This document shows positions 2,806 to 26,183 of a stretch of DNA of 64,000 bases, in pieces. Under the pieces are notes generated by a model, which was not told the origin of the DNA, searched no databases, and worked only from the letters and a program-made list of their open reading frames with translations. The position numbers and the translations under genes were made by a program. Where the stretch lies: contig JAKLIQ010000005.1 in NCBI GenBank assembly GCA_022709525.1, positions 7,626 through 71,625 of the forward strand, given 5' to 3'. Origin of the DNA: Candidatus Omnitrophota bacterium (GTDB lineage Bacteria > Omnitrophota > Omnitrophia > Omnitrophales > Aquincolibacteriaceae). How positions within the stretch are numbered: the stretch's first letter is position 1; every line of letters starts with the position of its first letter.

Positions 2806-3879
2806 ATGATACGTCTTCGAAGCGCCTTTGCCCTGGGGATCCACGCCTTCCCCGTGGATATCGAGGTGGATATTAGTAACGGTCTTCCTCAACTCATTCT
2901 TGTGGGGCTCCCCGACGCCAGCATCAAGGAGGCGCGGGAACGGGTCCGGACGGCGCTCAAAAACAGCGGTTTTCACATACCGCCCGACAAGATCACGATC
3001 AATCTCGCTCCGGCCGATATCAAAAAGGAGGGGGCAGCTTTTGATTTTCCAATCGCGCTCGGGATCCTGGCTTGCCATGGCGTCATTCCCCCCGAAAGCC
3101 TCGCCGCTCATACTTTTCTCGGGGAACTTGCGCTTGATGGAACTCTTCGCCCCTTAAAAGGCGTTATTGCGATCACAACGGGCTTAAAGGAATCTTCCTT
3201 TATCCTCCCGTTTGAAAACGCCGAAGAAGCGGCATTAGCTAGAGACATCACGATTTATCCGGTTAAAAATTTGAGGGAAACGGTGGATTTTTTACTTGGA
3301 AATCAGGTTGTCGAACCTCTGCGGAACCTTCCCTACCGAAGCAAGGTTCCTTCCCAGAACTCCCTTGATTTTTCGGAGATCCGCGGACAACAGGCCGCTA
3401 AACGCGCTTTGGAGATCGCGGTCGCCGGAGATCACAAGATCCTTTTTATCGGACCGCCGGGCAGCGGGAAAACCATGCTCGCGAAGCGCATTCCGACCGT
3501 TTTTCCTCCTATGAGTCCTGAAGAAGCCCTAGAGGTCACCAAGATACACAGTGTGGCAGGGTTGATAACCCAGGCGGGCGGTCTGGCTCTCGAAAGGCCT
3601 TTTCGCGCACCTCATTATACGGCATCGGCGGTTGCCTTAACGGGAGGCGGCACTTCCCCTCGTCCCGGAGAAATGTCTCTTTCTCACGGCGGGGTCCTTT
3701 TCCTTGATGAACTTCCGGAGTTCCGACGTGATGTGCTGGAAACGCTTCGAAGCCCGCTCGAAGATGGTTGTATTACGGTTTCACGCGCCAAAAGCCAGGT
3801 CACATTCCCTGCCAATTTCTTGCTCGTTGCGGCCATGAACCCCTGTCCTTGCGAGAGTTATCGCCAACTACTGGTATGA
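2806..3879 (+). pseudogene. comM: comM/yifB (Mg-chelatase-like AAA+ competence protein), 5' fragment disrupted by insertion
   Basis: YifB/ComM N-terminal Lon-like domain and Walker A ([12 protein letters not shown]). Homology stops at AAMNPCPC, where intact ComM continues with a Gly-rich and Zn-finger region. Here the frame reads ESYRQLLV* from inserted DNA. Confidence 0.8.
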
Positions 3880-5467
3880 CAACAGTAGCTTCTAGTGGGT
3901 GCTCTAAATCTTTATAAGTTACTTTTCTAACGAATCTCTTCAACGCCCCCTTACGCTGTTCTTCATCTGACTTATTCCATAACTTTCTAAGCTCGCGAGC
4001 AAAAACATATACGCTTTCAGCGTCTATTAGCTGACTTTTAGCCCTCTCCCATTTATTTTGAAAATCTTTGAGTTTTTCCTCATTCTCCGTGAACTCACCA
4101 TTAATTTCCTGCATCCTTTGTTTAAAATCGCTTGCAGTTAAATTTTGCTCTTCAAATGCTTCAAATAAAAAGGTTTTCTTCTTTTTAATTTTTTCGTTTC
4201 TTTCGCTCATCTTTTGAATTTCTTCTCTTAATAATCCTTCCGAGCTTCGTATATATTGATTATGTCGTTTAACTACATCCTCAACGCCCATTAAATTTAG
4301 ATTGTTATAAAAATCAATTACGGCTTCGCTTACGCAAGTTTCTACTAAGTTTTTTCTTATTGGGGTTGAAGTGCACGCGAGTAAACCTTTTTGATCTCGG
4401 GTATAACAACGATAGTAGGAATGTATTGTCCCGTCGGGCTTTCTGCTGGATTTCCCCTGCAAACTTCCTCCGCAATTTCCGCATTTTAGTTGCCCGGCCA
4501 ATTTATAAACTGTGTCAAACCGTACCCGCACCTGTTTTTTTGATTGTAGAATCTCTTGTACTTTATTAAAAACCTCATTTGCCACGATACCCTGATGCTG
4601 ACCATCCTTGATCAGCCAGTCTTTTTTGGGCACAACAAGCATTTTCCGGCCTTTCACCGGAGTTGTCCTCTTACCATACCAAACTTTTCCGATATAGACC
4701 GGCGTTTGAAGAATTCTTGAAAGAGAGTTACTGGTCCATGGCTGTCCTTCGCGGGTCCAAAATCTTTTTTCGTGAAGCGCATCTCTTACTTTTCTTACAC
4801 TATGCGTCTGGAGATACGTATCAAACATAAACCTGACAGCGTTAGCTTCCGGCTCATAAACATAAAGCTTTTTTTCTTCCTTGCAAGTTTTCCTAGCTAC
4901 GGGCCTTGCATCATCTTCATGCATTCCTTGTTTCAGTAATTTTTTCACCTCTTCATGGAATGTTGTATATCCAAAAGGAACGACTCCGCCATTCCATTTG
5001 CCTTCTTTTGTTCTTTGATACATTGCGAAACTTACTCGATTTCGAATATTATCTCTTTCTGATTCGGATATAAAATTTCCTGTTTTCAAAATGGGATTCT
5101 TATAACCACCGTTTTCGTTCCGCTTAATTCTTAGCCCATAATTAATCGCATAAAATTCGATATCAAACTCTTCAAATATCCCTATCCAATGGCTATTATC
5201 CCCTGAATCCCTGCTCAACCTTGAAGGTTCAGTAACAAGTACGGTTCCAACTTTTCCGTTTCTGATATCATTTAACAGTCTCGTCATTTCAGGACGGTCC
5301 AGGTCTCCCCCAGAGAACCCATCATCAACATATTGTTCAAATGGATTAAAACCTTGCCGCTCGCAGAAATCGCCGAGCCTTTTCTTTTGGGTGTTAATCG
5401 TTTCCCTCTCTCGCTGAATTTCTGTCGATACCCGGCAATAAACAGCCACTATTCTTTTGTCGTTCAT
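3800..5467 (-). CDS. Large serine recombinase (resolvase/invertase catalytic domain, recombinase domain, zinc-ribbon region)
   Basis: N-terminal [12 protein letters not shown]...[11 protein letters not shown] serine-recombinase catalytic motif. ~555 aa with a C-terminal Cys cluster (CGNCGG) and coiled-coil. ATG at 5465-5467. Confidence 0.9.
3865..3895. repeat. Putative attL core: imperfect inverted repeat CTACTG-N9-CAGTAG at the comM/insert junction
   Basis: Sequence ccaaCTACTGgtatgacaaCAGTAGcttc lies at the point where comM homology ends and about 60 bp from the serine recombinase stop. Serine recombinase att cores are imperfect inverted repeats around a 2-bp crossover. Confidence 0.35.
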
Positions 5468-5814
5468 TTATCGCAACCTCCAATGCCCACTGATAGATAA
5501 AGTCGCGCAGCGAATCGAACCCTTCATGTGACTTTTCCTTAATATCATTAGATTCTTTTTCATTAGAGTGTTCCGGCTCGAAGCTGATTAAGACTTCGAC
5601 TTTTTGAAGTTTTACTCTTTTCCCTAATCTTGTTGTTTTGGTCTCTTGTCCCGTTCGAGAGATCTCGTGATCTCCCATTTTATCCACCCCCTTGGAAAGC
5701 GTTTAAGTGCGTCCCAAAGGGAAAATCTTCTGAAGCCGGGTTCTTCTCAGACCATTTTTATTTATCTTATGTGTCTATCAAATAGACACATATTATCAAA
5801 AAAATATATCCCCC

Positions 5815-6024
5815 TCAAGCTTTTTTCCTATACTTCAATGGGATCTTATCCGCGTTTCGTTTCTCGAGATACCGTTTTACTTCTTTTGTAGTAGTGAACC
5901 ATGTCAGGCCGATCTTGAAGCCTCTCAGACGTTTTCTATCGATGGCCTTCCGCAATCCGCCCCAAGTTAAACCATATTTTTGAGCTGCCTCATGCAACTC
6001 TATTGATCCAGGAGGAATCCGCAT
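5815..6024 (-). CDS. Excisionase/MerR-like helix-turn-helix DNA-binding protein (candidate RDF)
   Basis: 69-aa HTH protein (LHEAAQKYGLTWGGLRKAIDRKRLRGFKIG) immediately upstream of and co-directional with the recombinase. Confidence 0.55.
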   Translation of the reverse strand: MRIPPGSIELHEAAQKYGLTWGGLRKAIDRKRLRGFKIGLTWFTTTKEVKRYLEKRNADKIPLKYRKKA

Positions 6025-6165
6025 GCCCGTCTCTCTATTTTAAGTAAAAGCATTGGTTGCATTGTACTTAGAGACGGCACTGATTGTCATCTACTTTACA
6101 ACATAGGCAGCATCGCCGAACCCCTATGTGCATTCATTGGGGTTCGGACAACGCAAAGACTAGGC

Positions 6166-6765
6166 TTATTCCTTTGAAAGAGCGATCTGATCAATATAAA
6201 CCGCACCAGATTTCGGATTTGAATTCTGGTCATCAAAAACAATTACGAATTCATTGAGTGAAGACCAATCCTGAATGTGGCGGAACTTATCAAACGGGAT
6301 AGTGACTTTCTGCCACTTGTCGGTGATATTTCCCACAATATAGGCTGAAGGTTTATTACCTTTATCTTTTAGTTCGATCTTCAATCGCTTCGTGAATCCA
6401 AGCTTTGCATCCCCTTTAATGTAAAACGTCAGGGAATTATAAGGGCTCGCATCCACCCCATTCAATTTCATCCAAAAACCGTTGTACGCAGGATTGGGTG
6501 AATCCACATCATAGTCCAAGCGAATCGAATAGCCGGCCCTATCACCCAAAGCATCATCCGACTCAAATTTCATCTCAGCCTTTTGAGTACTGTCATCCGG
6601 ATCCTTGTTCCATACGCCGAAATCGCCCCCGATATTATTTGGTTTGTCACCAGCATTGAAATCAGCAATGATCAATTCTTCCGCTGCGGCCATCACTTGC
6701 GATTGAAACGCAAAGGCCGCAACCATCATGCCCGTCAAAATGCCAATCATGAATTTCTGTCTCAT
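6166..6765 (-). CDS. Secreted carbohydrate-binding-module-like protein (CIA30/CBM11-like fold)
   Basis: Signal peptide (MRQKFMIGILTGMMVAAFAFQSQVMAAAEE). Single beta-sandwich-like domain with a CBM-like aromatic pattern. Assignment by resemblance only. Confidence 0.4.
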   Translation of the reverse strand: MRQKFMIGILTGMMVAAFAFQSQVMAAAEELIIADFNAGDKPNNIGGDFGVWNKDPDDSTQKAEMKFESDDALGDRAGYSIRLDYDVDSPNPAYNGFWMKLNGVDASPYNSLTFYIKGDAKLGFTKRLKIELKDKGNKPSAYIVGNITDKWQKVTIPFDKFRHIQDWSSLNEFVIVFDDQNSNPKSGAVYIDQIALSKE

Positions 6766-6835
6766 TTTACTTACTCCTTTCTTTGAATTGCCTTTCCCAT
6801 GCTTTGAATTCGAAAAAGGCCTTGCGTTTGTTTTC

Positions 6836-7477
6836 CTAAAAAATACTGGTAATTACCCCGCCAATTGCTCCATATTTGAATTTGGCAATTATTTTTTTCA
6901 AATCCGAATCTTCGCTGTATTGCCTCAGCGCCGTCTTAGTAACCGATTCAACAATAACTTTCGTTGTTTCTTCGGTTATGGGAGTTATCGCCTGCTGTTT
7001 ATGTTGACCGCTTGCAGTTCTTTGATAAATTTTTTGCCCGACTTCATCCAAAACGGTCAACTCAAGGATCATTTCCGCTTCAATGAGATGCGCCAGAGCA
7101 TCTGCCGCGAATATTCTGAGAGATTTGATTTTTAAGATGATGACGCCCTTCATCTTTTTCTTAGTCGTGATCAATTTTATGGAATCGGTTTCATTGAGTT
7201 GGACACGCACCACATCGAGTCCGACCTTTTCATTAATGTAGCGAATCAAACGATCCCCTACTAAATCAGTAAGATCGCTTTTCTTAACAATGATCGCGGC
7301 CGAGTCAATCACTCCTATCTTTTCACTAGCCCTTTCATCTATGGTATTCACCACCCCAACCGATAGCTTTTGATTCGGAGGCAACGAAATATCGGCATCT
7401 GATTTTTTTGAGAGCTTAGTCGCCGCACATCCGGAAAACGCTATAAAGCATAAAATTAAAAAAATCATTTTCCTCAT
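6836..7477 (-). CDS. Hypothetical lipoprotein
   Basis: Lipobox (LCFIAFSGCAAT). No recognised domain. Confidence 0.45.
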   Translation of the reverse strand: MRKMIFLILCFIAFSGCAATKLSKKSDADISLPPNQKLSVGVVNTIDERASEKIGVIDSAAIIVKKSDLTDLVGDRLIRYINEKVGLDVVRVQLNETDSIKLITTKKKMKGVIILKIKSLRIFAADALAHLIEAEMILELTVLDEVGQKIYQRTASGQHKQQAITPITEETTKVIVESVTKTALRQYSEDSDLKKIIAKFKYGAIGGVITSIF

Positions 7478-8658
7478 CGCTCTTTCTCCTGCTTCTCTTG
7501 AGCTTGATGACCAAGACCGGCCTCACGGTTAACGTGATTTTGCAAGAATAGCTGCTTCCCGCGTTCGATCTCTCTCTCGAGCTCTTCCGGTTTAGGTAAT
7601 TGAAGCTGGTATTTGGAGACGAAGATTTTGTTATTGAGGCCGCCAGTCGCGTATCTGACGGTTGTATTGTTCTTGTCGGAACAGAGAATGATGCCTATCG
7701 GGTCATTTTCCGCTTTCGGCAGAACATTCTCTTTTACCCAATTGACATAAAAGTTGGTTTGACCGGCATGAGAATGCGTGAACTTGGTAAGTTTCAGCTC
7801 AAGAACTATATAGGCCTTCAACAGAATGTTGTAGAGCAACAAATCGATTCGGTATTCATCGCCATCCACAGCAAATCTTTTTTGACGAGCCATAAATGCA
7901 AATCCCCGGCCAAGTTCCAGGAGGAAATTCTCAAGATGGCGAATCAGCGCATCTTCAAGATCTGATTCTGCGTAATCTTTTTTTAGCCCGAGAAAATCTA
8001 AAACATAGGAGTCTTTTACCTCATCTTCAGGTTTTGCAACGATTGGATTCTCGTTAGCTCTGGCAAGCACGAGATCTTTACGCTTCGATAATGCTGTTCT
8101 TTCATAAAGCAGCGCATTGATTTCCCGGTCAAGCTGCCGAACCGACCAGTGATTCTGAACAGAAAGAGCGTTATAGAAGGCCCTTTTTTCGGGTTCTTCG
8201 ATTCGTATGAGAAGCCGGTAATGAGACCATGAGAGAGTAAAGTAGGCATTGATCTCTCGAAGGAGATACGGGAATTGGCCACACAGTGTGTGGCCTTTTT
8301 GGAGCGCCATCTGGATGGAAGGCTTAAACCCATCTTGGCGATAGGTGAGATAAAATTGCCGTACCGTTTTAAGCTGCGTGAAACCGAACCCATTACCATA
8401 TCTTTTCGTAAGTTCTTGGGCGAGATTCTGTAAGATCTCTTCCCCGTAAGCGGCCCTTTCCTTGCCTCCCTGCTCAAATTCAACGATTCTCATCCCGATC
8501 ATCCAATAAGTTGCGATCAGCGTCGTATTGATTTGTCGAACCGCGGCCTTTCTTCCTTCTTCAATCAGTGCCGAAATGCTAGCGAAAAGCTCTTGGTACT
8601 CTGCGGGCCGCTTCGTTAACTCCTTTCCTTTTTTTATAAGGACATTTTTTTCATGCAT
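7474..8658 (-). CDS. DUF1016/YhcG-family PDDEXK nuclease-like protein
   Basis: YhcG-like N-terminal helical region (IATYWMIGMRIVEFEQ...) and C-terminal PD-(D/E)xK-like core (DLLLYNILLKAYIVLELK). Start chosen at MHEKN, position 8658. The track ORF extends to 8763. Confidence 0.65.
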   Translation of the reverse strand: MHEKNVLIKKGKELTKRPAEYQELFASISALIEEGRKAAVRQINTTLIATYWMIGMRIVEFEQGGKERAAYGEEILQNLAQELTKRYGNGFGFTQLKTVRQFYLTYRQDGFKPSIQMALQKGHTLCGQFPYLLREINAYFTLSWSHYRLLIRIEEPEKRAFYNALSVQNHWSVRQLDREINALLYERTALSKRKDLVLARANENPIVAKPEDEVKDSYVLDFLGLKKDYAESDLEDALIRHLENFLLELGRGFAFMARQKRFAVDGDEYRIDLLLYNILLKAYIVLELKLTKFTHSHAGQTNFYVNWVKENVLPKAENDPIGIILCSDKNNTTVRYATGGLNNKIFVSKYQLQLPKPEELEREIERGKQLFLQNHVNREAGLGHQAQEKQEKER

Positions 8659-9445
8659 TTTTGCGATCCTCTCTTGAGATGCATTCGGGAGCCCGCTTAT
8701 CGAAATGTCTTCTTGCTCCTTCATAGGACTCGATCGAACCGATATCAAACCATGCCCCGTCAAAATCCACGCCGTGAAGAGTTTCTTTCGTATTGAGCCA
8801 TGCGAAGAAGTCTCCGATCTTGTCCGGATTCAAGTTCTCGATCTCGAGATATTCCAGAACTCGCAGCTGGAATTTATTTGGGATGTAATAAACACCGATA
8901 CTTACCCGGGTCGATTTTGGATTTTCAGGTTTTTCCTGAAAGTCCGTGATCCGCGAGGCGTGATCGACTTCTACGACGCCGTATTGCGACGCGATGGATT
9001 TGTCTTTGACGTCATAGAGTCCCACAAAAGCGTGGTCCTTATGTCCAACGCAGTAAAGATCGATAAAATGCGTAAGCGGGTAATCGAAGTAATTGTCTCC
9101 ACACAAAACAACATATCCATCTGGATAGTCCTGCCCGGCTTGAATGCCGAGCCGAAGATCCTGGACTGCCCCCAATCTTTTCTCAGGCTCGTACACGTCA
9201 TTTTCTATGATCTGAAGCGGCTTTCGCGCGCAAGAAACTCTTTTCTTTGCCCACTCCATAAAATCAAGAGCAAAACGGCTATTAGTCACTAAAACGATCT
9301 TTTTAATGACTGGCGAGGCCTCCAATTTTTCGATCAAATGATCGAGAAGAGTTTTATCTCCGATTTCAAGAAGCGCCTTCGGCTTGAATTTGGTCAACGG
9401 GTAAAGACGGGTCCCGAAACCGGCCGCCAGAATAATTGCGTTCAT
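8651..9445 (-). CDS. Sugar-phosphate nucleotidyltransferase (NTP_transferase family)
   Basis: N-terminal MNAIILAAGFGTRLYPLT(K) nucleotidyltransferase G-rich loop. Start at ATG 9443-9445. Confidence 0.75.
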   Translation of the reverse strand: MNAIILAAGFGTRLYPLTKFKPKALLEIGDKTLLDHLIEKLEASPVIKKIVLVTNSRFALDFMEWAKKRVSCARKPLQIIENDVYEPEKRLGAVQDLRLGIQAGQDYPDGYVVLCGDNYFDYPLTHFIDLYCVGHKDHAFVGLYDVKDKSIASQYGVVEVDHASRITDFQEKPENPKSTRVSIGVYYIPNKFQLRVLEYLEIENLNPDKIGDFFAWLNTKETLHGVDFDGAWFDIGSIESYEGARRHFDKRAPECISREDRKNA

Positions 9446-9500
9446 TTGAAATGAATTCTCCTTTGAAAATTGAGTTCTTGAATTTGATAACACGATCTTT

Positions 9501-10568
9501 TTATTTGCCCGGTTGGTCATTGGCTTTCTCCTTGTTTTGGCTTTTTGGATCGAGAGCCTTCGGATTGATGAATCTTGCGAGTTCTTCCCGTGAAGGCTTT
9601 TGGATTGCCGGGAGCTTAGGCTGTATCACCCTACGTTTTCCGCTGATCCTTATCCATGCGCGCATCCCGTACTTCACATTGGAAGGAAACTCATCAAGCT
9701 TGATTTCGCAAGGAATGACGTGCTTTACATTGAAAACTTTTTCCACCTCTTCAGTGGTCCGGGGACCAACACTCGTCACTTCTCCGGAATAGGTCTTCCA
9801 GGGGAACGCCCGAAATCGCGCTTTCACCGCGTTTCCCTGCGCGACTTTTTCCACTTCCTTTTCAGAGATCAGGATTTCAAGGAAAAAGCTCCGCGGGTCC
9901 GCGAATTCCAGAACAAAATCACCTTCCTTTAATAGATTTCCGATCGTAATCCCGGGATCGGTAAGCAGCATCCCATCGAAAGGCGCTCTCAGCTCAAGCG
10001 ATTCCACTCTCTCCTTCAAAAACTTCACTTCTCCTTCAACCGATTCGATCTCTTTCTGACGCATGGCAAGCTCTTCTGCGGCCTGCGTATAATCCAGCTC
10101 GGCCTTATCCGACTGAAGACGGCCGATAACGCCGTTCTCGAACAGAATATTCTTCCGGTCTTTGTCCTTTGCCAGGAACTCAACCTGCTTTTCGAGGCGT
10201 GTTTTATCGTGATTCAGGATTTCGAGGTTTAGTTTTCGTTCCTCGAACTTCCTTGAAAGTTCGGGGTTCTCAAAACGCACGAGCAACTCCCCTTTTTTTA
10301 CTATGTCTCCTTTTTTATGAAGAAGTTCTTTCAGGATCCCGGAACTCGTAAGTCCGATCCGAGCGAACCGATCCGCCTGAACAATGCCTTCCCCCTTGAT
10401 GTATCCCTTAGGCCAAAAAAGGAAAGCTATGCCTAAGACGAGAACGATCAGAAAAAGTCTCGTCTTCCATTTACTCGTCCCTTCCGTTTTCTCTTCAAAA
10501 AGGGCCGGCTCCTGCGTGTTTTGATTCTGTTCTTTCTCCGTTTTCTTGTTTGTCTCGTTGTCGCTCAT
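9501..10568 (-). CDS. HlyD-family membrane fusion protein (periplasmic adaptor)
   Basis: N-terminal TM helix, biotinyl/lipoyl-like hairpin (GEGIVQADRFARIGLTSSGILKELLHKKGDIVKKGELLVRFEN), long coiled coil, then a beta-barrel region. Confidence 0.8.
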   Translation of the reverse strand: MSDNETNKKTEKEQNQNTQEPALFEEKTEGTSKWKTRLFLIVLVLGIAFLFWPKGYIKGEGIVQADRFARIGLTSSGILKELLHKKGDIVKKGELLVRFENPELSRKFEERKLNLEILNHDKTRLEKQVEFLAKDKDRKNILFENGVIGRLQSDKAELDYTQAAEELAMRQKEIESVEGEVKFLKERVESLELRAPFDGMLLTDPGITIGNLLKEGDFVLEFADPRSFFLEILISEKEVEKVAQGNAVKARFRAFPWKTYSGEVTSVGPRTTEEVEKVFNVKHVIPCEIKLDEFPSNVKYGMRAWIRISGKRRVIQPKLPAIQKPSREELARFINPKALDPKSQNKEKANDQPGK

Positions 10569-10586
10569 TTCTTTTAGTTCCTCCTC

Positions 10587-12173
10587 TTAGATCCAGCTTC
10601 TTAATTTCGCGGGAATCGATTTAGCTGTGAAATAGACTGTTGGTATCGAAAAAATCAGACTGATGAGAATGGGCGTTGTCTGCCAGACGAAGTACGGCGT
10701 GAGTTTCGTGCAAAAATAAAGGCCAAGGAACCCGAATGCCGTCCCGATCCAAAGCGATCGCGTCGCGGTTGGGAAATCCACTGTGGCAAACGGGTTTTTC
10801 GCCATGGGCCGCCAATGAAGCTTCTTCAAAGGAATGCTGAGGATCGCAAGCGGGCTATAAATGAAGTTATTGAGTGTCACTAGCGTGGAAATAAGAAGTT
10901 CATAAAGGTAATGCCGGACGTCCTCCCAAGTCTTCAAAATGACGGCCTTATGCAGAAAAACAACCGCGAGACTGAAAAGCAGGATCCATTTCAGGATCTG
11001 GTTCGAGAAAAGATTCATCCAGATCGAATCGATCCGGAAATAGATAAGTTCTCCGGTCATAAGGGAATGCGACAAAAGACCAAGCAGCACCCAGAAAAAG
11101 AACACGATGTCCGCCAGATAAAGATAAATGCCGTACCCGGCGAGAAACTTGGAGGCAAGCGTCACATTGGATTCGAAAAGAAGAGGCACACCCTGAAGCG
11201 TTCCTTGCGCCCAGCGGCTCGCTCTTGCTTTGGCCTCGAGATAATTCGAAGGCGCTTCGTCATACGCTTCAACATCCGGACAAAATGCGACACGGTATCC
11301 CATCTGATCAAGCCGGACGGTGTCCCAGTTATCGTGCGAGAGCAGGCCCTTCGGAAGCCGAATCTTGGAGATCGCTTTCGTTCTGGCAAGATGATGATGC
11401 CCGAATGAGATGGTTCGTCCAAAAATCGCTTGAACCGCCACGAAATTCAGGCGCTGCGCAAACCGGGTTCCGATCCTCTCGAAACGCGAGTACCAGGTCG
11501 TCGCATGCGCGATCCTCACAAATGCCTGAAAGATCGCGATATCTTGGTTTTCGGGATGTTCCGCTTTTCTGAGCAGTTTAAGGAGCGTCCCTTTCGGAAC
11601 CATCCCGTCCGCGTCACATATATATAGGTAGTCGTATTCCGGATGGGAGTGCAAAAACTCCGCGATATTCCCCTGTTTTCTTTCAACGGGGTGCGGTCTT
11701 CTCCGGTAAAACACCCGGCCGGGATGCAGCGATTCGAGTTTCGCGACAAGGTTCGCCTCATAAGGAGCGTACTCTTCCGCGGAATCCGAAAGGATCCATA
11801 AATCCACGTTGTGGAATTTATTCCCGGAAAAGGAATAATTCATCCGCTGCGACATTCCGTAGGATTCGTTGCGGATCGGGTAAACGAGCGCCACTTTCGG
11901 GAACCGTTTTACGTAGTCTTCCTTCAAGATCGGAGTTTTGAGGAAGGGATGGACCGCGCTTGTCAAAAAAAGATACGCGACATTAAAGAACAGGAACCCG
12001 AACCCAAAGATCCACGCCAAGCTCAAAAGAACCGTATCCTCCGTCATGACAATCGCGGATGACACAAGCCAAACAGCGATAAGTGTTAACACAACCACGG
12101 TTCCGAGAAAAAGCACCGTTCTTTTCTCCGGGTCCTTCAACCATCCGTGGAAATGAGATCTGTCCGGTATCAT
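10587..12173 (-). CDS. Integral-membrane processive family-2 glycosyltransferase (cellulose-synthase/OpgH-like polysaccharide synthase)
   Basis: GT2 fold with D,D,D and a Q(R)xRW-type motif (RASRWAQGTLQG). Flanked by N- and C-terminal multi-TM regions. Confidence 0.7.
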   Translation of the reverse strand: MIPDRSHFHGWLKDPEKRTVLFLGTVVVLTLIAVWLVSSAIVMTEDTVLLSLAWIFGFGFLFFNVAYLFLTSAVHPFLKTPILKEDYVKRFPKVALVYPIRNESYGMSQRMNYSFSGNKFHNVDLWILSDSAEEYAPYEANLVAKLESLHPGRVFYRRRPHPVERKQGNIAEFLHSHPEYDYLYICDADGMVPKGTLLKLLRKAEHPENQDIAIFQAFVRIAHATTWYSRFERIGTRFAQRLNFVAVQAIFGRTISFGHHHLARTKAISKIRLPKGLLSHDNWDTVRLDQMGYRVAFCPDVEAYDEAPSNYLEAKARASRWAQGTLQGVPLLFESNVTLASKFLAGYGIYLYLADIVFFFWVLLGLLSHSLMTGELIYFRIDSIWMNLFSNQILKWILLFSLAVVFLHKAVILKTWEDVRHYLYELLISTLVTLNNFIYSPLAILSIPLKKLHWRPMAKNPFATVDFPTATRSLWIGTAFGFLGLYFCTKLTPYFVWQTTPILISLIFSIPTVYFTAKSIPAKLRSWI

Positions 12174-13519
12174 TCCTCCACCCCCTCGGAATCGGAAGGT
12201 GGAACCAGAGCTTCGCTTTCGGAGCTTTGCGGAGTTGTTTCAAAATCCGCTTTCTTTTCGAGTTTGACGAGAAGAACCCGGTATTCGGTCACCGATTGAA
12301 CGTTTTTTATCTTCGCTTCTTCAAGCGCGATAAAAGAATCGATCAATTCCCCAGTTCCTTTTTCGCCGGCGATGAGTCTTGTCTTTTCATTCTTATAGAT
12401 CTCCTCGCGTTCGCGGATAAGCGCTTCCGTCAGCCGGATCTTTTCCCGGACTGCCCGGGCCTCGTGGAACGCTTCCCGGATCCCTTGCTCGTGTTTTTTC
12501 ACCTGAAGCTCGCCTTCCCATTTCATCTCCTCAATCTCGTGGGATTTCGCCTTGATCTTTGAGCCGAGCCGTCCGAAATCCCAAATGTTCCATTTTCCGA
12601 CAAGGCCGACCATGACTCGGTTTGTATCCACGAAAACATCGCTCGCCTCGTTCCATTTCGCGGAAAGACTCAGGTGCGGGTAGCGGTCGGCAACGAGTTC
12701 TTTTTTCTCAAATTGTTTTTCGCGGATCTTGAGATCCTTGAGTTTGTAGACCGGATCGTGCTCGCGGGCTGTTGTAAGGTATGTATTTGCGCCATCACTA
12801 AGCTCAGAAAAATCCCCGAGCGGTTCAAGGTCCAGAGATTCCCCCTCCCCGATCCCGATGGTTTCTTTAAGGACACTAAGCAGGTAATCGCAAGTCTCCT
12901 TGTGCTTAACGAGCGCCTGTTTTGCTCCCTGAAAGAGCGTTTCGATCCTGAAAAACTCATAGCGCGGCAGAATCTCCCGATCAACGAGTTTCTTGATCCG
13001 CTCGTACTCGACGGTGAGTTCTTTGACCTCACCCTGAGCGATCCGGGTAAGTTCCTTTTCCGCGAGCACTTCGGCGTAAAGCACCCGAACACTGGCTTCG
13101 ACGGCAACCTTGGCCTGCTCCAGTCGCAACTCTTCGCTTTCAACGATTGCTTTCTGTTTTTGCTTCTGAGCAACCGCTTTCCCGCCCTGGAAGATCGGCT
13201 GCTCGATCCCCGTGTCCACGTAATTCACGAAACTCTTTCCTCCCGTCGCGAAAGCGGACGTGATTTCGCCGGATAGTTTGGGGAAAAACTCCGCGAGGGC
13301 CCCCTTATAAAGGGACTCCTCTTTATGGAGCCGGGCAAAAGCGCGTTTTACTTCCGCGTGGTTCTTTAGCGCCCTTGCCACGGCTTCATCGAGAGTTAAA
13401 AGGGACCCAAACTGCTCCGGCGAAAGGGCATCCGGCACCGCGGCTTTTAGGGAATGCGCGGAAAACACGGCGACAGCAAAAAACGTTACGACGATGCCCC
13501 AGAACTTACTCGTTTTCAT
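12170..13519 (-). CDS. TolC-family outer membrane factor
   Basis: Signal peptide (MKTSKFWGIVVTFFAVAVFSAHS). Two-repeat OEP architecture with long coiled coils. Stop overlaps the GT2 start. Confidence 0.8.
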   Translation of the reverse strand: MKTSKFWGIVVTFFAVAVFSAHSLKAAVPDALSPEQFGSLLTLDEAVARALKNHAEVKRAFARLHKEESLYKGALAEFFPKLSGEITSAFATGGKSFVNYVDTGIEQPIFQGGKAVAQKQKQKAIVESEELRLEQAKVAVEASVRVLYAEVLAEKELTRIAQGEVKELTVEYERIKKLVDREILPRYEFFRIETLFQGAKQALVKHKETCDYLLSVLKETIGIGEGESLDLEPLGDFSELSDGANTYLTTAREHDPVYKLKDLKIREKQFEKKELVADRYPHLSLSAKWNEASDVFVDTNRVMVGLVGKWNIWDFGRLGSKIKAKSHEIEEMKWEGELQVKKHEQGIREAFHEARAVREKIRLTEALIREREEIYKNEKTRLIAGEKGTGELIDSFIALEEAKIKNVQSVTEYRVLLVKLEKKADFETTPQSSESEALVPPSDSEGVEE

Positions 13520-13572
13520 CACTCGAAATACCTCCCTTTTAGATCTGAACATGATCTTTCACCGGTCCTTGT

Positions 13573-13821
13573 CTACTTTTCCGAAAGACTTTTGATCAGT
13601 TTTTCCACGTTCTCCTGAAACGTCTTTGGATTTTCAGGGATCAGGATCCCGCGTCTTCCCGGCATCATCTGTGCCCCTTCCCGCGCCGTGAAATACCGGA
13701 TATCGCCCCGGATCTTTCCGTCCACTTCCACCTTGGTGAAATGCAGTTCTTCACCGTCCCGTGTCTCGACCACCGCCACTTTCTTCACTTCTTTGAATCC
13801 GCCTTCGTATCTTTTCTTCAT
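13573..13821 (-). CDS. Hypothetical small protein
   Basis: 82-aa ORF between trbI-like and tolC-like genes. No motif recognised. Confidence 0.3.
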   Translation of the reverse strand: MKKRYEGGFKEVKKVAVVETRDGEELHFTKVEVDGKIRGDIRYFTAREGAQMMPGRRGILIPENPKTFQENVEKLIKSLSEK

Positions 13822-13846
13822 TGTTTTTTACTCCTCCTTGTTTTGA

Positions 13847-14821
13847 TTAAATTGCTTCAAGCAGCATTACTTCAATATTGATCCCGGACTCGACCGTAAT
13901 GCTCTTGTCCACTTTGACGCTTCTTAAGTCCTGCGACGCCTGGTTCGTAAGATTGTCCGCGAGATTGACACGCATCTGGTCTTCAAGGCTGTAAGCATCC
14001 TGACTTCTTCCGCCGACAAAAAGAGACGCTCCGGCAAGCAGCGTTTCCCCGATCGCTTTGAGAACCTTCGTGTCCGTGTGTTTGTCCACTTTCCCTTTAA
14101 TCCCGCCCGAACCATCCTCGGAAAGGGCGATCGCCCGGATGCGAAGCTCGCGTCCATCCGGAAAGATCAAAAGATCAAACCGCACATTCACCCGGTCCAC
14201 CGATTTCACGACGTTCACTTCCCCAAGAAACCGGGAGCCCTGGGGAATGACGACCTGATTTTTGACGCTGAAATCTTTTGAGACCAGCGCCGTGACCGGG
14301 GCCGCGACGTTAAACGAGAATATTCGCTCATTTAAAAGCGCCGGGATCTTGGTCCCTGAAGGAATCCCGAGTTTCGCATCCTCGGAACGGACTTTAGAAG
14401 ATGTTTGCGGTTTTGGATTCTCGGGTTTGTCGATGAAGACCGCGATTTCGCTCGTGTATTTTCGTTTCCCAGAAAGGTTTTGCCGGGTTTCGCTTTGTTT
14501 CGCGCGGAAAGTCTTCCCTTTCGCGGAAGAATCAATCGCGCGCTCCATGGATTGAGTCGTAATCATGATCCGGTTCTCCTCAGGACGAGGCATGGGATTC
14601 TGGGCGCGTTTATGAGCTGGTTTAGAGAAAAGAAGGATTGAAAGCATGAAAACTCCGGCGATCACAAGCGCGATTCGGAGCGACTTTTTCTCAAGCAGGT
14701 TCTGAACAAAACCCGCCGCTTTATTCGCGCGTTTCGGCTCATCGAAAAACTCGGGTTCCGGTGGAGTTGGTAATTCGCTTGTTTTCTTTTCCGGCTTTTT
14801 CTTGAATATTTCTGGTTTCAT
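13847..14821 (-). CDS. trbI: T4SS TrbI/VirB10-like protein
   Basis: N-terminal TM, Pro-rich region. C-terminal block (VIPQGSRFLGEV...VRFDLLIFPDGRELRIRAIALSEDGSGGIKGKVDKH...LLAGASLFVGG) matches the VirB10/TrbI C-terminal domain pattern. Confidence 0.7.
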   Translation of the reverse strand: MKPEIFKKKPEKKTSELPTPPEPEFFDEPKRANKAAGFVQNLLEKKSLRIALVIAGVFMLSILLFSKPAHKRAQNPMPRPEENRIMITTQSMERAIDSSAKGKTFRAKQSETRQNLSGKRKYTSEIAVFIDKPENPKPQTSSKVRSEDAKLGIPSGTKIPALLNERIFSFNVAAPVTALVSKDFSVKNQVVIPQGSRFLGEVNVVKSVDRVNVRFDLLIFPDGRELRIRAIALSEDGSGGIKGKVDKHTDTKVLKAIGETLLAGASLFVGGRSQDAYSLEDQMRVNLADNLTNQASQDLRSVKVDKSITVESGINIEVMLLEAI

Positions 14822-15843
14822 TTGAACCACTCGAATCCTTTGATTTCGAAGTTCCGGGGTTTTGAACTCGCGCTCGCGGGCGTATCTTCCAGGAGCCGAA
14901 GCACGGGTTTGTCGTCTTTTCCCATCGCGCGATAATCAAACACAAGAACCCCGTATTCATAACTGTCGGGGTTAATGACCCCGGCGAGCTTGAGTTCCGA
15001 GGGGATCTCGATAACACCGGATTCTTTCTTGCCGAGGAACCGTTTCTCGTAGGTCTGGATCCCCACAAAGGCTTTAAGGACCCGGTAAGGAATCTTTGAA
15101 TAATTGAGGACCGAGAATCGGAGATAAAGTTTGTTTCCGACCTGAGCGAGGAAAAGCAGATTAAGCTGCACCTCGGAATCCGCTTTCGACTTCTTGAGAT
15201 CGAGCGTACGAATGCCGGTTGTGACTTTCTCTTTGATTTTTTCTTCGGAAATTTCCTGGGCTTTTTGGTCGAGTTTCTCTTCCTTTTTCTGATACTGTGC
15301 TTTAAGCTCCTCGACTTTCTTTTCTACTTTTTCCTCGAACGCGTTATGAACGAGCGTTTCGTCGTCTTGCGGGAGCCGGAAATCGAGTACGAAATCGGCG
15401 GTGTCAGGAGCCCCGACCGAAACATCGAACGCAAGCCGCGAGGAAGCGGTCATGATCACGAGATTCGTTTTCGCGTCCGGTTCGTCCGTAATGGGTTTTA
15501 TAAGGACCTGTTTCTCGTAAACCTCGACTTTGTAAAGTTCCTGGTCCCCCACGAACACCTTGAGCGCTTTTTCGGGAAGATCGATCGTGGAGACATAACC
15601 GAGCGCGGTTTGGAGTTTAAAGGTCACCGTAGAACGCATGGTAACCTTGTAGATATTTTGCGTGCTGCGCTTGAGTTTGTTGAAATGCTGGCGATCCTTG
15701 AGCGGATCCGGTTTCTCGTCCTGAACCGCGGACTCATCGTTTGACTGGGAGCTTTTGCTTTCCGCGGCGGGAAGAGAAGAAGCATGAACAAGGACGAATA
15801 CGGCAAGCGCCGCGACACTAAAGATTTGATTTGGTTTTCTCAT
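14818..15843 (-). CDS. trbG: T4SS TrbG/VirB9-like secreted protein
   Basis: Signal peptide, N-terminal beta domain (TVTFKLQTALGYVSTIDLPE), central coiled-coil/Lys-Glu linker, C-terminal beta-sandwich. Position between VirB8-like and VirB10-like genes matches trb order. Confidence 0.5.
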   Translation of the reverse strand: MRKPNQIFSVAALAVFVLVHASSLPAAESKSSQSNDESAVQDEKPDPLKDRQHFNKLKRSTQNIYKVTMRSTVTFKLQTALGYVSTIDLPEKALKVFVGDQELYKVEVYEKQVLIKPITDEPDAKTNLVIMTASSRLAFDVSVGAPDTADFVLDFRLPQDDETLVHNAFEEKVEKKVEELKAQYQKKEEKLDQKAQEISEEKIKEKVTTGIRTLDLKKSKADSEVQLNLLFLAQVGNKLYLRFSVLNYSKIPYRVLKAFVGIQTYEKRFLGKKESGVIEIPSELKLAGVINPDSYEYGVLVFDYRAMGKDDKPVLRLLEDTPASASSKPRNFEIKGFEWFK

Positions 15844-15934
15844 TGATTCCCAGCTCCTTATTTAAAATGGAGGGGATGAGAAACCAGCTGCTCAGAAGGG
15901 CCCGAATGGCCCCGGGAGACCGGTAACATCTCCC

Positions 15935-15987
15935 CTCAAAGTATTGGGCCAAAACGGGGTGTTTTGGAATAGGTTCCCACAGGTTTT
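15935..15987 (-). promoter_or_regulatory. Conserved island promoter-like element, copy A (ECF-type GGAAC-N16-CGTT on gene strand)
   Basis: One of three ~53-bp near-identical copies. Lies about 92 bp upstream of the trbG-like ATG. Confidence 0.5.
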
Positions 15988-16008
15988 GAGAAAAAAAGTG
16001 GAAGATTT

Positions 16009-16656
16009 CTAGAGTTTATTGAGGAGAATTTCGCGGTAGTCTTCGACAAGGACGCCCCAGGGGATGTCCTTGCTTCTTGGAACCTTCTTTAAGAGCAGCT
16101 CGGCTTTAAAGAGGCTTGATTCCTTATAATCCCGATCGTTGTAATTGAGGATGGTCCGCACCCCGATCAGCGCGATTTTCACGTATTCCGGGGTATTCCG
16201 GTCGATCGATTCTTCTTTGAACTCGATATGCGTGTAAAGACCGGTATCGTGGAATTTCGCGAAGAACCCGGAGTCCACAAGGTCCCGCTCCGCGATTTTC
16301 TGATACCGAGCCGTCATTCGGTTCCACGCCTCAGCCGTATCGCTTGAAAGCGTGTAGGAATTCAATTCCCTAAAACGTTTCGTGAAAGTTTTCGCGAAAT
16401 CAAAAACCTCGAAATCGGTCGGGGCGTTATTAAGCTCAAGATCATGGATCGCTTCCGCTTTTCCCACCTCATTTACCCGGATCACGACCGGCGGCCGCTT
16501 GGCGAGCATGAACGCGCCAAAGATCGTGAAGAAAAGAAGCGCGAGCAAAAAAAGACTGATGAGTTTCAGGAACTCGACCTGCGCTTCCAGGTCTCCGAAC
16601 ACCTCGTAATACCGGCGTTTCATGTTCTCGAGTTTGATATGAAAACGGGTTTTCAT
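16009..16656 (-). CDS. trbF: T4SS TrbF/VirB8-like protein
   Basis: Short cytoplasmic N-terminus, one TM (LISLFLLALLFFTIFGAFML), then a ~150-aa NTF2-like periplasmic domain. Sits between trbL-like and trbG-like genes. Confidence 0.5.
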   Translation of the reverse strand: MKTRFHIKLENMKRRYYEVFGDLEAQVEFLKLISLFLLALLFFTIFGAFMLAKRPPVVIRVNEVGKAEAIHDLELNNAPTDFEVFDFAKTFTKRFRELNSYTLSSDTAEAWNRMTARYQKIAERDLVDSGFFAKFHDTGLYTHIEFKEESIDRNTPEYVKIALIGVRTILNYNDRDYKESSLFKAELLLKKVPRSKDIPWGVLVEDYREILLNKL

Positions 16657-17513
16657 TTGTAACCGGCTCCTCCTCCGGCTGGAGTTTGGGGTTTTGAAGA
16701 TGAAGGGGTTTTAGGAATAATGTAACGGGTCGCCACAGCTGTAAACGCGCCAAGCGCGATCGAACCAAGACCGCTTAAGTTGCCGCCCGAAACGAACTGG
16801 TTTGAAAGAAGAGGGACAAGCACAAAGAGCACGATAAAAAGGACGTTCGCGGCGAGGATCATCATGAAATTGGTTTCTTCCGTGAGATAAATCGCAGTCA
16901 GGTTCATAACGGAAACGACTTTCATGAGAATCGAAAGAATAATGTTCCACGCCGAAATGGAAACAAGACTCTTGAGCCATGTGTTAAGGCCCTGAGCGGT
17001 CCCTTTATAGATCCCGACTGAGATCACGATCGGACCGATCACGTACAAAAACGACAGAAGCAGGAACCGAAGCATCATGATCGCGCCAAGAAGCGCTCCG
17101 GCGACGGCGTAAGTGACGTAGTTCAAGACCGTGGCCGTGAGTCTCAGATCGAATTTCCAGGCGGTCTTCCAGGAGAGCGGCTGCTTCAGGAACGCTTTTA
17201 TGACTTCCTGGAATTCCTCGTGCGGCATGATGGCGTTTGATACGAGGTCCGCGCCGTAAACGATCCACGTGAAGAACCGCTCGTAGAGAATGAGAAGACC
17301 AACGACGAGGATTACCCTGATGAAAAGACCGGTATAATCGGACTGGTTCTTAAGCGCCTGAAAGTTTTCGTGAAGAATCGCGACAATGAAAAGGATCGAA
17401 AGCAGAATAAACCCGATCCTCGACATCGTCTGATACGGCTGAGCGAAGAGGTCCGGGATCTGAAGAACGTTAGTAAAAAGAAACCCTTCGTTTGCGTTAA
17501 AAAGACCGGCCAT
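16653..17513 (-). CDS. trbL: T4SS TrbL/VirB6-like polytopic membrane protein
   Basis: At least 5 TM helices, C-terminal Gly/Pro-rich tail. Position after the trbJ-like gene. Confidence 0.6.
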   Translation of the reverse strand: MAGLFNANEGFLFTNVLQIPDLFAQPYQTMSRIGFILLSILFIVAILHENFQALKNQSDYTGLFIRVILVVGLLILYERFFTWIVYGADLVSNAIMPHEEFQEVIKAFLKQPLSWKTAWKFDLRLTATVLNYVTYAVAGALLGAIMMLRFLLLSFLYVIGPIVISVGIYKGTAQGLNTWLKSLVSISAWNIILSILMKVVSVMNLTAIYLTEETNFMMILAANVLFIVLFVLVPLLSNQFVSGGNLSGLGSIALGAFTAVATRYIIPKTPSSSKPQTPAGGGAGYK

Positions 17514-17515
17514 AG

Positions 17516-18283: not shown

Positions 18284-18406
18284 AAATGCCTCCCGTGAAA
18301 TAAAAGTAAAAACCCGAGTCCGAGAATCAGGGTCCCGATAAGCAACCGGAGAATCTGCCGCCGGCATATCCTTCTTATCCATCTTGTTTTTCGCTCCTCC
18401 GCCGTG

Positions 18407-21195: not shown

Positions 21196-21206
21196 TTACA
21201 GCCTCC

Positions 21207-21542: not shown

Positions 21543-21627
21543 AAAGTGAGGGGAGAGTTGCCTTAAACCCCTGGGGTAGCCGCGAATCGCGACGCTCACA
21601 AATAAATTTGAATGGGTGGCATCTCCC

Positions 21628-21680
21628 CTCAAAGTATTGGGCCAAAACGGCCCTGTCCGGAATAGGTTCCCACAGGTTTT
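21628..21680 (-). promoter_or_regulatory. Conserved island promoter-like element, copy B
   Basis: Same ~53-bp element. About 86 bp upstream of the trbC-like start, immediately downstream of the sigma-region-4 regulator gene. Confidence 0.5.
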
Positions 21681-22968: not shown

Positions 22969-22976
22969 ATTCTCCA

Positions 22977-26163: not shown

Positions 26164-26183
26164 GGGTTCCTCCTAAACTTGAT

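Follow-up and report, generated by a model that had tools for sequence, protein, structure and literature searches.

comM and its empty site

The window, which denotes the whole 64-kb stretch of DNA analysed, contains a 5' fragment of comM (yifB; 2806..3879, forward strand) and, on the reverse strand, the gene of a large serine recombinase (LSR; 3800..5467). The comM fragment carries the Pfam domains ChlI and Mg_chelatase and is native up to 3853 (349 aa, ending in AAMNPCPC); positions 3854-3879 append an element-encoded tail, ESYRQLLV and a stop, to the ComM fragment. An earlier reading of the letters alone (the sequence-only reading) had described this same YifB/ComM match and the tail that follows it, and comparison with an intact ComM of 505 aa (P0002) gives 91% identity across residues 1-349.

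The window ceases to match relatives and the empty site at 3851-3853. The empty site was found in three contigs from three sequencing runs (L096, L097 and L098), which are 99.6-99.9% identical to window positions 730-3853. In L097 an intact comM encoding 505 aa is present, the flanking DNA is 99.9% identical, and the match stops at window position 3853. In all three contigs comM is followed by two Hsp20 genes, a response regulator and more host genes. The contigs that bear the right attachment site attR (L102, L103 and L104) contain Hsp20, an intact 3' half of comM and foreign DNA beyond it, with 100% identity between this 3' half and L097 across 4,644 bp. The extra DNA relative to the empty site is everything from comM codon 347 to the comM 3' half, and ComM loses its last 156 aa through the insertion.

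An empty attB in a 99.9%-identical strain confirms the insertion, and excludes the two cases that the sequence-only reading had itself set against its claim: a sequencing frameshift and a short native ComM ending in ESYRQLLV. The break in comM is genuine and, as had been proposed, what splits the gene is an LSR-bearing mobile element. The comparison with an uninterrupted comM, which had been suggested as a check, defined attB from L097. No C-terminal half of ComM was found in the 64-kb window by tblastn, in agreement with the earlier statement; the missing half, whose recovery had also been suggested, lies with attR off the window and is placed on the same contig. The host genes that stand 3' of comM in relatives (Usp, response regulators, Omp85) were likewise not found in the window. 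Their absence raised the possibility of a rearrangement, which the accession order and the look-up of Hsp20 resolved. Scans of the window for tRNA genes and Rfam families found nothing. The exact-sequence look-up of the truncated ComM returned no record, and a genome contig scan with P0002 gave, among the matches listed, only ComM proteins of at most 55% identity from other phyla.

Attachment sites and the divided recombinase gene

Serine integrases recombine attP with attB unaided, and attL with attR only with a directionality factor. Their attP, about 50 bp long, has an imperfect dyad centred on a dinucleotide; the shorter attB has weaker symmetry, and the two sites are identical over no more than a short stretch. 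A three-way comparison of the window (attL), L097 (attB) and L102 (attR) gave a 10-bp core, TGTCCTTGCG, at 3844..3853, which is identical in attB, attL, attR and the rebuilt attP. The attP reconstructed from both ends of the element contains GTTGTCGATAACTCCCACAGGCATGTCCTTGCGAGAGTTATCGCCAAC and is strongly symmetric over about 56 bp; no circular form of the junction was among the DNA retrieved. Its P' arm, GAGAGTTATCGCCAAC, lies at 3854..3869 (full P' half-site at about 3846-3872); the partner of this arm, the P arm GTTGTCGATAACTCCC, is at the far end of the element, off the window, in L102. The repeat arms match at 14 of 16 positions and the half-sites at 20 of 27 around TG, compared with a maximum of 19 and a mean of 6.7 for half-site symmetry across 63,940 window positions. 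The symmetry of attP predicts that the crossover dinucleotide is the TG at 3844-3845, within the core. The symmetry of attB is weaker; its best centre, CC at 3847-3848 (14/27), is 3 bp from the TG of attP, so that the two sites disagree on the exact crossover. A symmetric attP, a less symmetric attB and a common core of 10 bp are the features of serine-integrase attachment sites. When the window was searched for a further att half-site or for a copy resembling the P arm, only the site itself came up, so attR is not in the window; the real symmetry became visible only when attP was rebuilt from both ends.

The sequence-only reading had placed an inverted repeat, CTACTG-N9-CAGTAG, exactly at the breakpoint (3869-3890) and regarded it as att-like. 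Its arms are in fact at 3868-3873 and 3883-3888, that is, 15-35 bp inside the element and away from the breakpoint at 3853. Perfect 6-bp inverted repeats of such a type occur about 10 times per kb and in 24% of 40-bp windows, as a chance feature would. In the closest related element, on contig L091 (LSR 83% identical, same comM site and junction), a 3-bp deletion removes the second arm. Given its position within the element and its lack of conservation in L091, the repeat is not an att feature, and was rejected as the core.

In its integrated form the LSR is 555 aa long, and was identified by Pfam, by CcrB/XisF-like matches in NCBIfam and by alignment. It contains a resolvase domain (PF00239, E=1.2e-25, residues 7-158), a Recombinase domain (PF07508, E=1.2e-19) and a zinc ribbon (PF13408, E=1.9e-10). 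The catalytic motif YCRVSTEIQ with its nucleophilic serine (Y-x-R-V-S-T type) is invariant in the alignment, as are Cys329, Cys332, Cys354 and Cys365 of the 4-Cys zinc ribbon. A minus-strand LSR beside the break had been noticed before, and this part stands; its end had been put 60 bp away, which is incorrect. The open reading frame has no stop before the junction, continues across it and shares 80 nt with the comM fragment; the last 17 LSR codons are therefore comM antisense. A metagenome scan with the LSR gave only two short relatives, L091 among them.

Two small genes on the reverse strand stand next to the LSR, and both are kept in L091. The first encodes 97 aa (5394..5687; 108 aa in L091), lies upstream of the LSR start and overlaps it, and has no family matches. 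The second, at 5815..6024, encodes a 69-aa HTH protein, which also adjoins the LSR in L091 and is a candidate recombination directionality factor of the excisionase-like kind. It had been called an Xis-like HTH gene; the HTH reading frame is there, and its Xis identity is weak, with two sub-threshold matches (Pfam HTH_17, E=0.0019; a PHROG excisionase, E=0.00097). A PDB search with this protein gave no match.

The attP lies within the linker-coding part of the recombinase gene, so that on integration not only comM but also this gene is split. In the rebuilt circular form, the LSR reads in frame into a 168-aa tandem-HTH open reading frame to give 709 aa, arranged as LSR core, 25-aa linker and two XRE-type HTH domains. 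In the integrated state, the 555-aa LSR with its 17-aa comM-antisense tail is left at the left end and the 168-aa HTH-HTH frame at the right end. On the basis of these reading frames, it is tentatively suggested that the element's own integration acts as a genetic switch on the recombinase, in which the full 709-aa LSR-HTH protein would exist only in the excised circle. The 168-aa frame matches, at 55% identity (E=5e-54), the C-terminal part of a single-chain LSR of 669 aa (P0395), whose architecture, Resolvase-Recombinase-Zn_ribbon-HTH_3, is common to P0399, P0417 and P0423. These single-chain homologues could be independent fusions. In PLSDB, tblastn with the 709-aa fusion gave only LSRs of at most 26% identity, none with an HTH tail.

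It is rather unlikely, and still to be weighed here, that the in-frame LSR-HTH arrangement is coincidental, a core of about 530 aa being functional in both states and the 168-aa HTH-HTH protein being an independent regulator beside attR. Conservation of the LSR core extends as far as ..ATVVI, short of the att site and about 25 bp from the junction, and an L005-type comM LSR stops at that point; an ATG closely preceded by an AAGGA motif opens the 168-aa frame itself; and the chance of in-frame, stop-free continuity across attP is estimated at about 1/7 (about 0.15). Coincidence does not easily account, however, for the same C-terminal tandem HTH in four divergent single-chain LSRs, for the lack of a stop before the junction in both the window LSR and that of L091, or for the ATG of the 168-aa frame straddling the predicted crossover.

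If the switch operates, the two forms of the recombinase would differ in activity, directionality or self-regulation, and the HTH-HTH frame would be placed downstream of the host hsp20 and of the comM antisense strand. Such a device would be a serine-recombinase counterpart of the Mx8 IntP/IntX system and of integration-dependent immunity, and other LSR-HTH proteins of about 700 aa, as a wider class, may share it. A functional difference between the forms would provide a new way to control the directionality of serine integrases. A defined attP/attB pair is now given for a previously uncharacterised LSR class.

Gene content and extent of the element

The type IV secretion block (13847..21632, reverse strand) was identified with Pfam and NCBIfam and comprises TrbI/VirB10, CagX/VirB9, two membrane proteins (one of them TraJ/VirB6-like), a VirB4/TraC ATPase (18407-21001), a small VirB3-like frame and a TrbC/VirB2 pilin; the matches are significant, yet all are below the curated equivalog or family cut-offs. 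A DNA-processing module follows on the same strand, with a type IV coupling protein (T4CP; TraD/VirD4-like, 34749-36560) and a MobC/Replic_Relax protein (36572-37336), which is named replication-relaxation family protein at NCBI (HOW87067.1) and scores 24.2 bits against a Pfam cut-off of 25.3, with E=1.3e-14 in NCBIfam. Among the genes scanned no canonical MOB-family relaxase was identified, with some 12 kb of the element unseen. The element thus contains mating-pair formation genes together with a coupling protein.

Further to the right is a restriction-modification island of low GC (40-43%; 38213..44107) with Vsr, a Z1-domain protein, an NgoFVII-type endonuclease and a Dcm methylase by Pfam. 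It is nested in the element and missing, as an indel, from a related ICE in L095. A LacI-family regulator and an XRE HTH gene (44621..46086) belong to the conserved backbone, and are linked to the relaxase and the coupling protein in three lineages. The right part of the window is filled by a giant midasin-like frame on the reverse strand (48274..63999) of more than 5,241 aa, whose 5' end is off the window. Its domains are HEAT repeats, six AAA_5 modules with midasin lids, and a VWA domain. The accession order and the empty site place this gene between attL and attR as cargo. Giant genes of the same ICE family encode 5,005 aa with HEAT repeats in L095 and 4,436 aa with NosD/RHS domains in L099. 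Since the restriction-modification island and the giant-gene region vary among related ICEs, the insert is a mosaic. An end of the element at about 44 kb, where GC rises, was considered and rejected: the LacI, XRE and giant genes stay linked to the relaxase in relatives, and precede attR.

The order of accessions runs from the T4CP (HOW87066) and Replic_Relax (87067) through Z1 (87071), Dcm (87073), LacI (87074), DUF1232 (87076) and glucoamylase (87077), then Hsp20 (87095) through L19 (87103); the comM 5' fragment is 87304 and the LSR 87305. Nearly all of the listed proteins that were looked up are also recorded on one contig of 146,543 bp (JGI 3300009838, Ga0116153_10000303). From 3844..64000 the window thus holds the left 60.2 kb of the element, which continues off the window to attR at a window-equivalent position of about 85.3 kb. 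The sequence-only reading had given its length as more than 60 kb, which accords with an estimate of about 81.5 kb, drawn from one contig start (a partial T4CP of 467 aa) and the accession order, with about 12 kb (window-equivalent 64-76 kb) unseen. The ends are defined by attL in the window and attR in L102, attB is empty in L096-L098, and flank identity is 99.6-100%. It is highly probable, in view of these data, that the window contains attL and the left 60 kb of an ICE of that size in comM of a Candidatus Omnitrophota MAG.

Occupied comM sites (samples JGI 3300009838 and 3300025706; SRR4244739) and empty ones occur in different samples, which indicates mobility and bears on a second reading of the insert as a domesticated gene-intervening element or regulatory switch, excising on cue like SPbeta in spsM, skin in sigK and phi10403S in comK. 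This is improbable, even if both comM halves are undecayed (the 3' half being 100% identical to the empty allele), excision by the LSR would restore comM exactly, and integration also rewires the recombinase gene. The element has a complete set of genes for conjugation, the same strain with and without it across samples points to gain and loss in the population rather than to a fixed developmental element, and other comM inserts in the phylum are unrelated to it. A prophage or phage-like satellite is very improbable: many comM-targeting LSRs are phage-borne (PMC10083194) and Prim-Pol or phage-like genes occur in neighbouring comM inserts of Omnitrophota, but Pfam scans of 9-48 kb found no capsid, portal, terminase or tail genes, VirB4, VirB2, VirB9, VirB10 and the coupling protein are present, and scans of IMG/VR with the LSR, P0395 and P0423 gave no close relatives, a result that speaks against a phage. 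That the junction arose by misassembly or misbinning in a chimeric contig is hardly credible: the NCBI version of the MAG has the region in two contigs (42.7 and 69.1 kb), but that split falls inside the T4CP gene, away from comM, there are records on four contigs (NCBI, JGI, ENA) for the truncated ComM and likewise for the LSR, a junction of this kind recurs in the independent metagenome contig L091, and the common core of attL and attR rebuilds a highly symmetric attP.

For the conjugative element, the following course is proposed. LSR dimers on attP and on attB (the comM codons for MNPCPCGYLGD) would synapse; the LSR would cut at the central dinucleotide in the core, most likely TG, rotate and religate, and integration would inactivate ComM. 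Excision would need a directionality factor, for which the 69-aa excisionase-like HTH protein and the released HTH-HTH protein are candidates, and would precisely re-create both comM and the full-length recombinase gene. The excised circle could then transfer by conjugation. The split of the recombinase gene probably allows different recombinase forms in the two states.

Omnitrophota is an uncultured phylum of tiny, possibly predatory bacteria, in which mobile elements have mostly been inferred only from read coverage; here a conjugative element is delimited by attL, attR, attB and a rebuilt attP. Conjugation would be a direct route for the spread of Omnitrophota giant genes. These genes have been suggested to travel as mobile cargo (bioRxiv 10.64898/2026.06.07.730766), and a giant midasin-like gene in this ICE, with others in related ICEs, gives concrete support to that suggestion.

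Recurrent insertion in comM and known systems

The NPCPC(G) motif is also the point at which nine further listed ComM proteins of Omnitrophota end, with different tails. A convergent LSR lies directly downstream of the ended ComM in all three contexts examined, and P0408, from another lineage, is an LSR that reads through into ComM at CPCG. The description of comM as a hotspot for integrative elements in the sequence-only reading is borne out by this recurrent insertion of unrelated elements at a conserved motif. In the survey of Durrant et al. 2022 (PMC10083194), Mg-chelatase/ComM homologues are the target of 12.4% of predicted site-specific LSRs; the basic finding is ordinary, as comM is known to be hit by LSRs more often than any other target. 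The survey was restricted to LSRs of 400-650 aa (PMC10083194), a filter by which HTH-tailed LSRs of about 700 aa would have been excluded. The rank of comM as the commonest documented LSR target, the ICE with its type IV secretion system and the recombinase frame crossing the junction were absent from the sequence-only reading. LSR elements probably favour comM because loss of ComM protects the element from removal by transformation.

Conjugative elements moved by a large serine recombinase are known in Tn5397, with TndX, and in the triple-serine-recombinase ICEs of Firmicutes. As in these, the LSR is predicted from the genes to integrate and excise a conjugative element; the present one differs in its phylum, in a VirB-type rather than Tn916-type transfer module, in a single site-specific target and in its giant-gene cargo. 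In mycobacteriophages of clusters G, N and P, reportedly described by Broussard et al. in 2013, integration-dependent immunity is said to arise from an attP inside the repressor gene, so that the integrated and excised states encode different proteins and form a built-in state sensor. There a repressor is split and the integrase is a tyrosine recombinase; in the window element a repressor-like HTH is fused to a serine recombinase. In myxophage Mx8 (IntP/IntX), attP lies in the integrase coding sequence (Tojo 1996 and Magrini 1999, as cited in PMC6070905), and integration gives the integrase gene a new 3' end and an altered protein. Mx8 Int is a tyrosine recombinase, whereas the window enzyme is a serine recombinase, and the piece detached here is a complete tandem-HTH module that is still an open reading frame at the other end.

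In Acinetobacter baumannii, the AbaR/AbGRI islands likewise interrupt the Mg-chelatase domain of comM with a large island, and reduced transformation is the proposed benefit to the element (PMC11472951). They are Tn7-like transposons (TniA/B/C) with no att recombination and no precise restoration (PMC11472951), unlike the serine-recombinase element of the window. The closest parallels are the LSR elements in Mg-chelatase/ComM genes (PMC10083194), which share an LSR located at the edge of the element, a target within the coding sequence of comM, a short common core and loss of the competence gene; the window element differs from them in its Omnitrophota host, its 81-kb ICE cargo and an attP inside the recombinase frame. 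The targeting of comM by LSRs is already known; less ordinary are the position of attP inside the LSR frame and the detachment of the tandem HTH on integration.

Interrupted comM and its empty site

The plus-strand reading frame at 2806-3879 encodes 357 aa, of which residues 1-349 contain the ChlI and Mg_chelatase domains of YifB/ComM (Pfam) and are 91% identical to an intact 505-aa ComM (P0002). The match stops at ..AAMNPCPC, and ESYRQLLV followed by a stop closes the fragment, as the sequence-only reading had described. As it had also stated, the C-terminal half of ComM is absent from the whole 64-kb window (tblastn with full ComM). The truncated protein is present at NCBI in a Candidatus Omnitrophota MAG (HOW87304.1), and a full-length 505-aa ComM (P0301) belongs to the same 90%-identity cluster. 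Three Logan contigs (L096-L098) encode P0301 and match window 730-3853 at 99.6-99.9% identity. In them comM is uninterrupted, and directly downstream come two Hsp20 genes and the genes for a response regulator, a GGDEF-EAL protein, a PAS kinase, YraN, RNase HII and L19. These contigs are the empty site, and this comparison with an uninterrupted comM defines attB. A sequencing frameshift as the cause of the short ComM is thereby excluded, as is a native short C-terminus ending in ESYRQLLV.

In relatives, comM is followed by host genes of which none occurs in the window. Look-up of the Hsp20 protein led to three further contigs (L102-L104) carrying Hsp20, the intact 3’ half of comM and then foreign DNA; their comM 3’ side matches L097 at 100% identity over 4,644 bp. 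The other half of comM was found together with attR. The sites read ..GCCATGAACCCC-TGTCCTTGCG-GTTATCTCGGCGATACGC.. (attB), ..GCCATGAACCCC-TGTCCTTGCG-AGAGTTATCGCCAACTAC.. (attL) and ..GATAACTCCCACAGGCA-TGTCCTTGCG-GTTATCTCGG.. (attR), with the common core TGTCCTTGCG at window 3844-3853. The rebuilt attP is ..AAAAGTTGTCGATAACTCCCACAGGCA-TG-TCCTTGCGAGAGTTATCGCCAACTACT.., whose 27-nt half-sites match at 20/27 positions around TG, against a background over 63,940 window positions with a mean of 6.7 and a maximum of 19. Symmetry is much lower in attB, where the best centre is CC (14/27), 3 bp from TG and still in the core. An attB less symmetric than attP is usual for serine integrases. Because both centres fall within the core, the crossover is placed there, most likely at TG (3844-3845), and the exact dinucleotide is not fixed.

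The two arms of the att inverted repeat proper lie at opposite ends of the element, and only the P’ arm (3854-3869) falls in the window. A different repeat, CTACTG-N9-CAGTAG, had been proposed as an att-like feature exactly at the breakpoint. Its arms (3868-3873 and 3883-3888) lie 15-35 bp inside the element, 6-bp repeats of this kind occur about 10 times per kb in the window, and a 3-bp deletion in the closest related element takes out the second arm; it is therefore a chance feature. Nor does the large serine recombinase (LSR; 3800-5467, minus strand) end 60 bp from comM, as had been thought: its reading frame continues past the junction and shares 80 nt with the comM fragment. The disruption itself is real, and its earlier interpretation mostly correct apart from the inverted repeat.

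Extent and gene content of the element

NCBI accession numbers, obtained by exact-sequence look-ups, served as a proxy for gene order. One run extends from DUF212 (HOW87303) through the comM 5’ fragment (87304) and LSR (87305) to MoxR (87334), and HOW87307, the first gene inside the element, is recorded on contigs up to 42.7 kb. A second run comprises a partial type IV coupling protein (T4CP; 87066), Replic_Relax (87067), Z1 (87071), Dcm (87073), LacI (87074), DUF1232 (87076) and glucoamylase (87077). A third, on a 69.1-kb contig, comprises two Hsp20 proteins (87095, 87096), the response regulator (87098), PAS kinase (87100), YraN (87101), RNase HII (87102) and L19 (87103). Almost all looked-up proteins of these runs are also recorded on a 146,543-bp contig. 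The NCBI version of the MAG breaks inside the T4CP gene (~35160; partial HOW87066.1), and the 146.5-kb contig in other sources joins both parts.

By accession order, the host flank returns about 17 genes past the glucoamylase gene, with the gene order of the empty site. Since Hsp20 (87095) follows glucoamylase (87077), a giant gene beyond the latter lies within the insert. The 69-kb contig begins inside the T4CP gene near window 35,160 and has attR at record position ~50,162, from which we infer an element length of ~81.5 kb, with ~12 kb of the element unseen. Both this length and the contiguity of the contigs are deduced from the order of accessions and a single contig end. The estimated size agrees with the earlier expectation of more than 60 kb.

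The gene map was drawn from Pfam and NCBIfam scans. A low-GC module at 3.8-8.8 kb holds the LSR, a 97-aa ORF, a 69-aa HTH protein, a secreted carbohydrate-binding protein, a lipoprotein and a YhcG nuclease; two sub-threshold hits make the HTH protein a candidate directionality factor. Between this module and the secretion genes lies a cluster (8651-13552; 8.7-13.6 kb) of a nucleotidyl transferase (8651-9520), an HlyD-family adaptor, a 528-aa multi-pass membrane family-2 glycosyltransferase, kept in the related element L095, and a TolC-like outer-membrane protein, possibly exopolysaccharide or export cargo. A VirB-type secretion block (13.8-21.6 kb) encodes TrbI/VirB10, CagX/VirB9, a TraJ-like protein, VirB4/TraC and TrbC/VirB2. 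It is followed by a DUF2201 metallopeptidase/VWA protein paired with a MoxR AAA+ ATPase (26468-29071; 26.5-29.1 kb), RadC (33.1-33.8 kb), a TraD-like coupling protein (34.7-36.6 kb) and a MobC/Replic_Relax protein (36.6-37.3 kb). The MoxR 90%-identity cluster lists members of many Omnitrophota MAGs and of one Harrisonbacteria MAG, a range that suggests a widespread ICE backbone. An island of ~40% GC (38.2-44.1 kb; 38213-44107) encodes Vsr, a Z1-domain protein, an NgoFVII-type endonuclease and a Dcm methylase. LacI, XRE, DUF1232 and the glucoamylase-family protein occupy 44.6-48.3 kb. The giant minus-strand ORF (48274-63999), exceeding 5,241 aa, is open at the window edge with its 5’ end beyond. 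Its architecture is midasin-like: HEAT repeats, six AAA_5 modules bearing midasin AAA lids, a low-complexity stretch rich in Q/E/G, and a VWA domain. Off the window, signalling genes crowd the last 9 kb of the right end (L102 11268-20684), where four response-regulator proteins, one of them bearing a PP-binding domain, are encoded along with a HisKA_7TM histidine kinase and a methyltransferase.

Pfam scans of 9-48 kb revealed no phage structural genes, scans of the window gave neither tRNA genes nor Rfam hits, and the LSR has no relatives in IMG/VR. Together with the secretion and coupling genes, the lack of phage genes and of IMG/VR relatives marks the insert as a putative integrative conjugative element (ICE). 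No canonical relaxase was found among the genes scanned with Pfam and NCBIfam.

Recurrent use of comM and giant-gene cargo

The search listed nine further Omnitrophota ComM proteins that break off at this NPCPC(G) motif, and their tails all differ. In all three contexts examined, a convergent LSR lies immediately downstream, but the cargo differs: Prim-Pol elements or a phage-like element. For one Prim-Pol element, attR was seen as well. Unrelated small elements (L002-L004, L008-L009, L005-L007) split these other comM genes at the shared motif, each with a convergent LSR at the comM 5’ side; one type has Prim-Pol/AAA_25, its own NmeDI-Dcm-Vsr module and ThiF, and another looks phage-like. In P0408, a 669-aa protein absent from the window and from an unrelated, high-GC lineage, the LSR frame reads into the ComM C-terminal half at ..CPCGWVGD, using the same motif in the opposite orientation. 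That comM is a known hotspot is borne out by these ends and by the literature: 12.4% of predicted site-specific LSRs target Mg-chelatase/ComM homologues, and LSR targets are enriched in competence genes (PMC10083194), while Tn7-like AbaR islands are among the other elements that interrupt comM (PMC11472951). The basic finding thus belongs to a well-known kind and is ordinary.

In L095 (GCA_964420575.1) the backbone genes and their order are the same (giant HEAT gene, glucoamylase, LacI, relaxase module, T4CP), and the 5.9-kb restriction-modification island is missing. As an indel against an otherwise collinear relative, the island (38213-44107) is a nested acquisition inside the ICE. Contigs L099-L101 share the LacI-XRE pair (88.5% DNA identity) as well as the genes for the relaxase, T4CP and RadC. 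Beside these stands another giant gene, whose 4,436-aa product has NosD and RHS domains. It takes the position of the window’s giant ORF in the ICE, as does a 5,005-aa HEAT giant in L095. A 2026 preprint proposes that integrative elements can carry Omnitrophota giant genes as passengers (bioRxiv 10.64898/2026.06.07.730766); the comM-inserted ICE is a delimited example. Two features are notable: this giant gene on a conjugative element, and a recombinase gene apparently split by its own attP.

A recombinase gene probably divided by integration

In alignment, the conserved LSR core ends at ..LEATVVI, near residue 530, and the frame goes on through P’ and the core. When the circle is rebuilt by joining attR to attL, the LSR gene becomes a 709-aa ORF that runs in frame into a 168-aa ORF of the right end (L102 11268-11774), whose ATG straddles the predicted crossover. 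Two XRE-type HTH domains make up the 168-aa product, which resembles phage repressors. Fused homologues were sought among 1.84 billion representative proteins, and single-chain LSRs of the same architecture were found: P0395 (669 aa), whose C-terminal 143 aa are 55% identical to the 168-aa ORF (E=5e-54), P0399 (702 aa), P0417 (705 aa) and P0423 (699 aa). Their existence argues that the LSR-HTH continuity is more than a reading-frame accident, and production of the 709-aa protein seems fairly probable.

The rebuilt attP falls within the variable, linker-coding stretch of an LSR-HTH-HTH gene, so that integration would separate the two parts, leaving a 555-aa LSR (its last 17 aa from comM antisense) and an HTH-HTH ORF 81 kb away. 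In the closest related element (L091), inserted at the same comM site with an LSR 83% identical, the LSR frame likewise reads over its junction. Integrated and excised states would then encode different recombinase forms. Parallels to such state-dependent forms are offered by IntP/IntX of Mx8 (PMC6070905) and by integration-dependent immunity.
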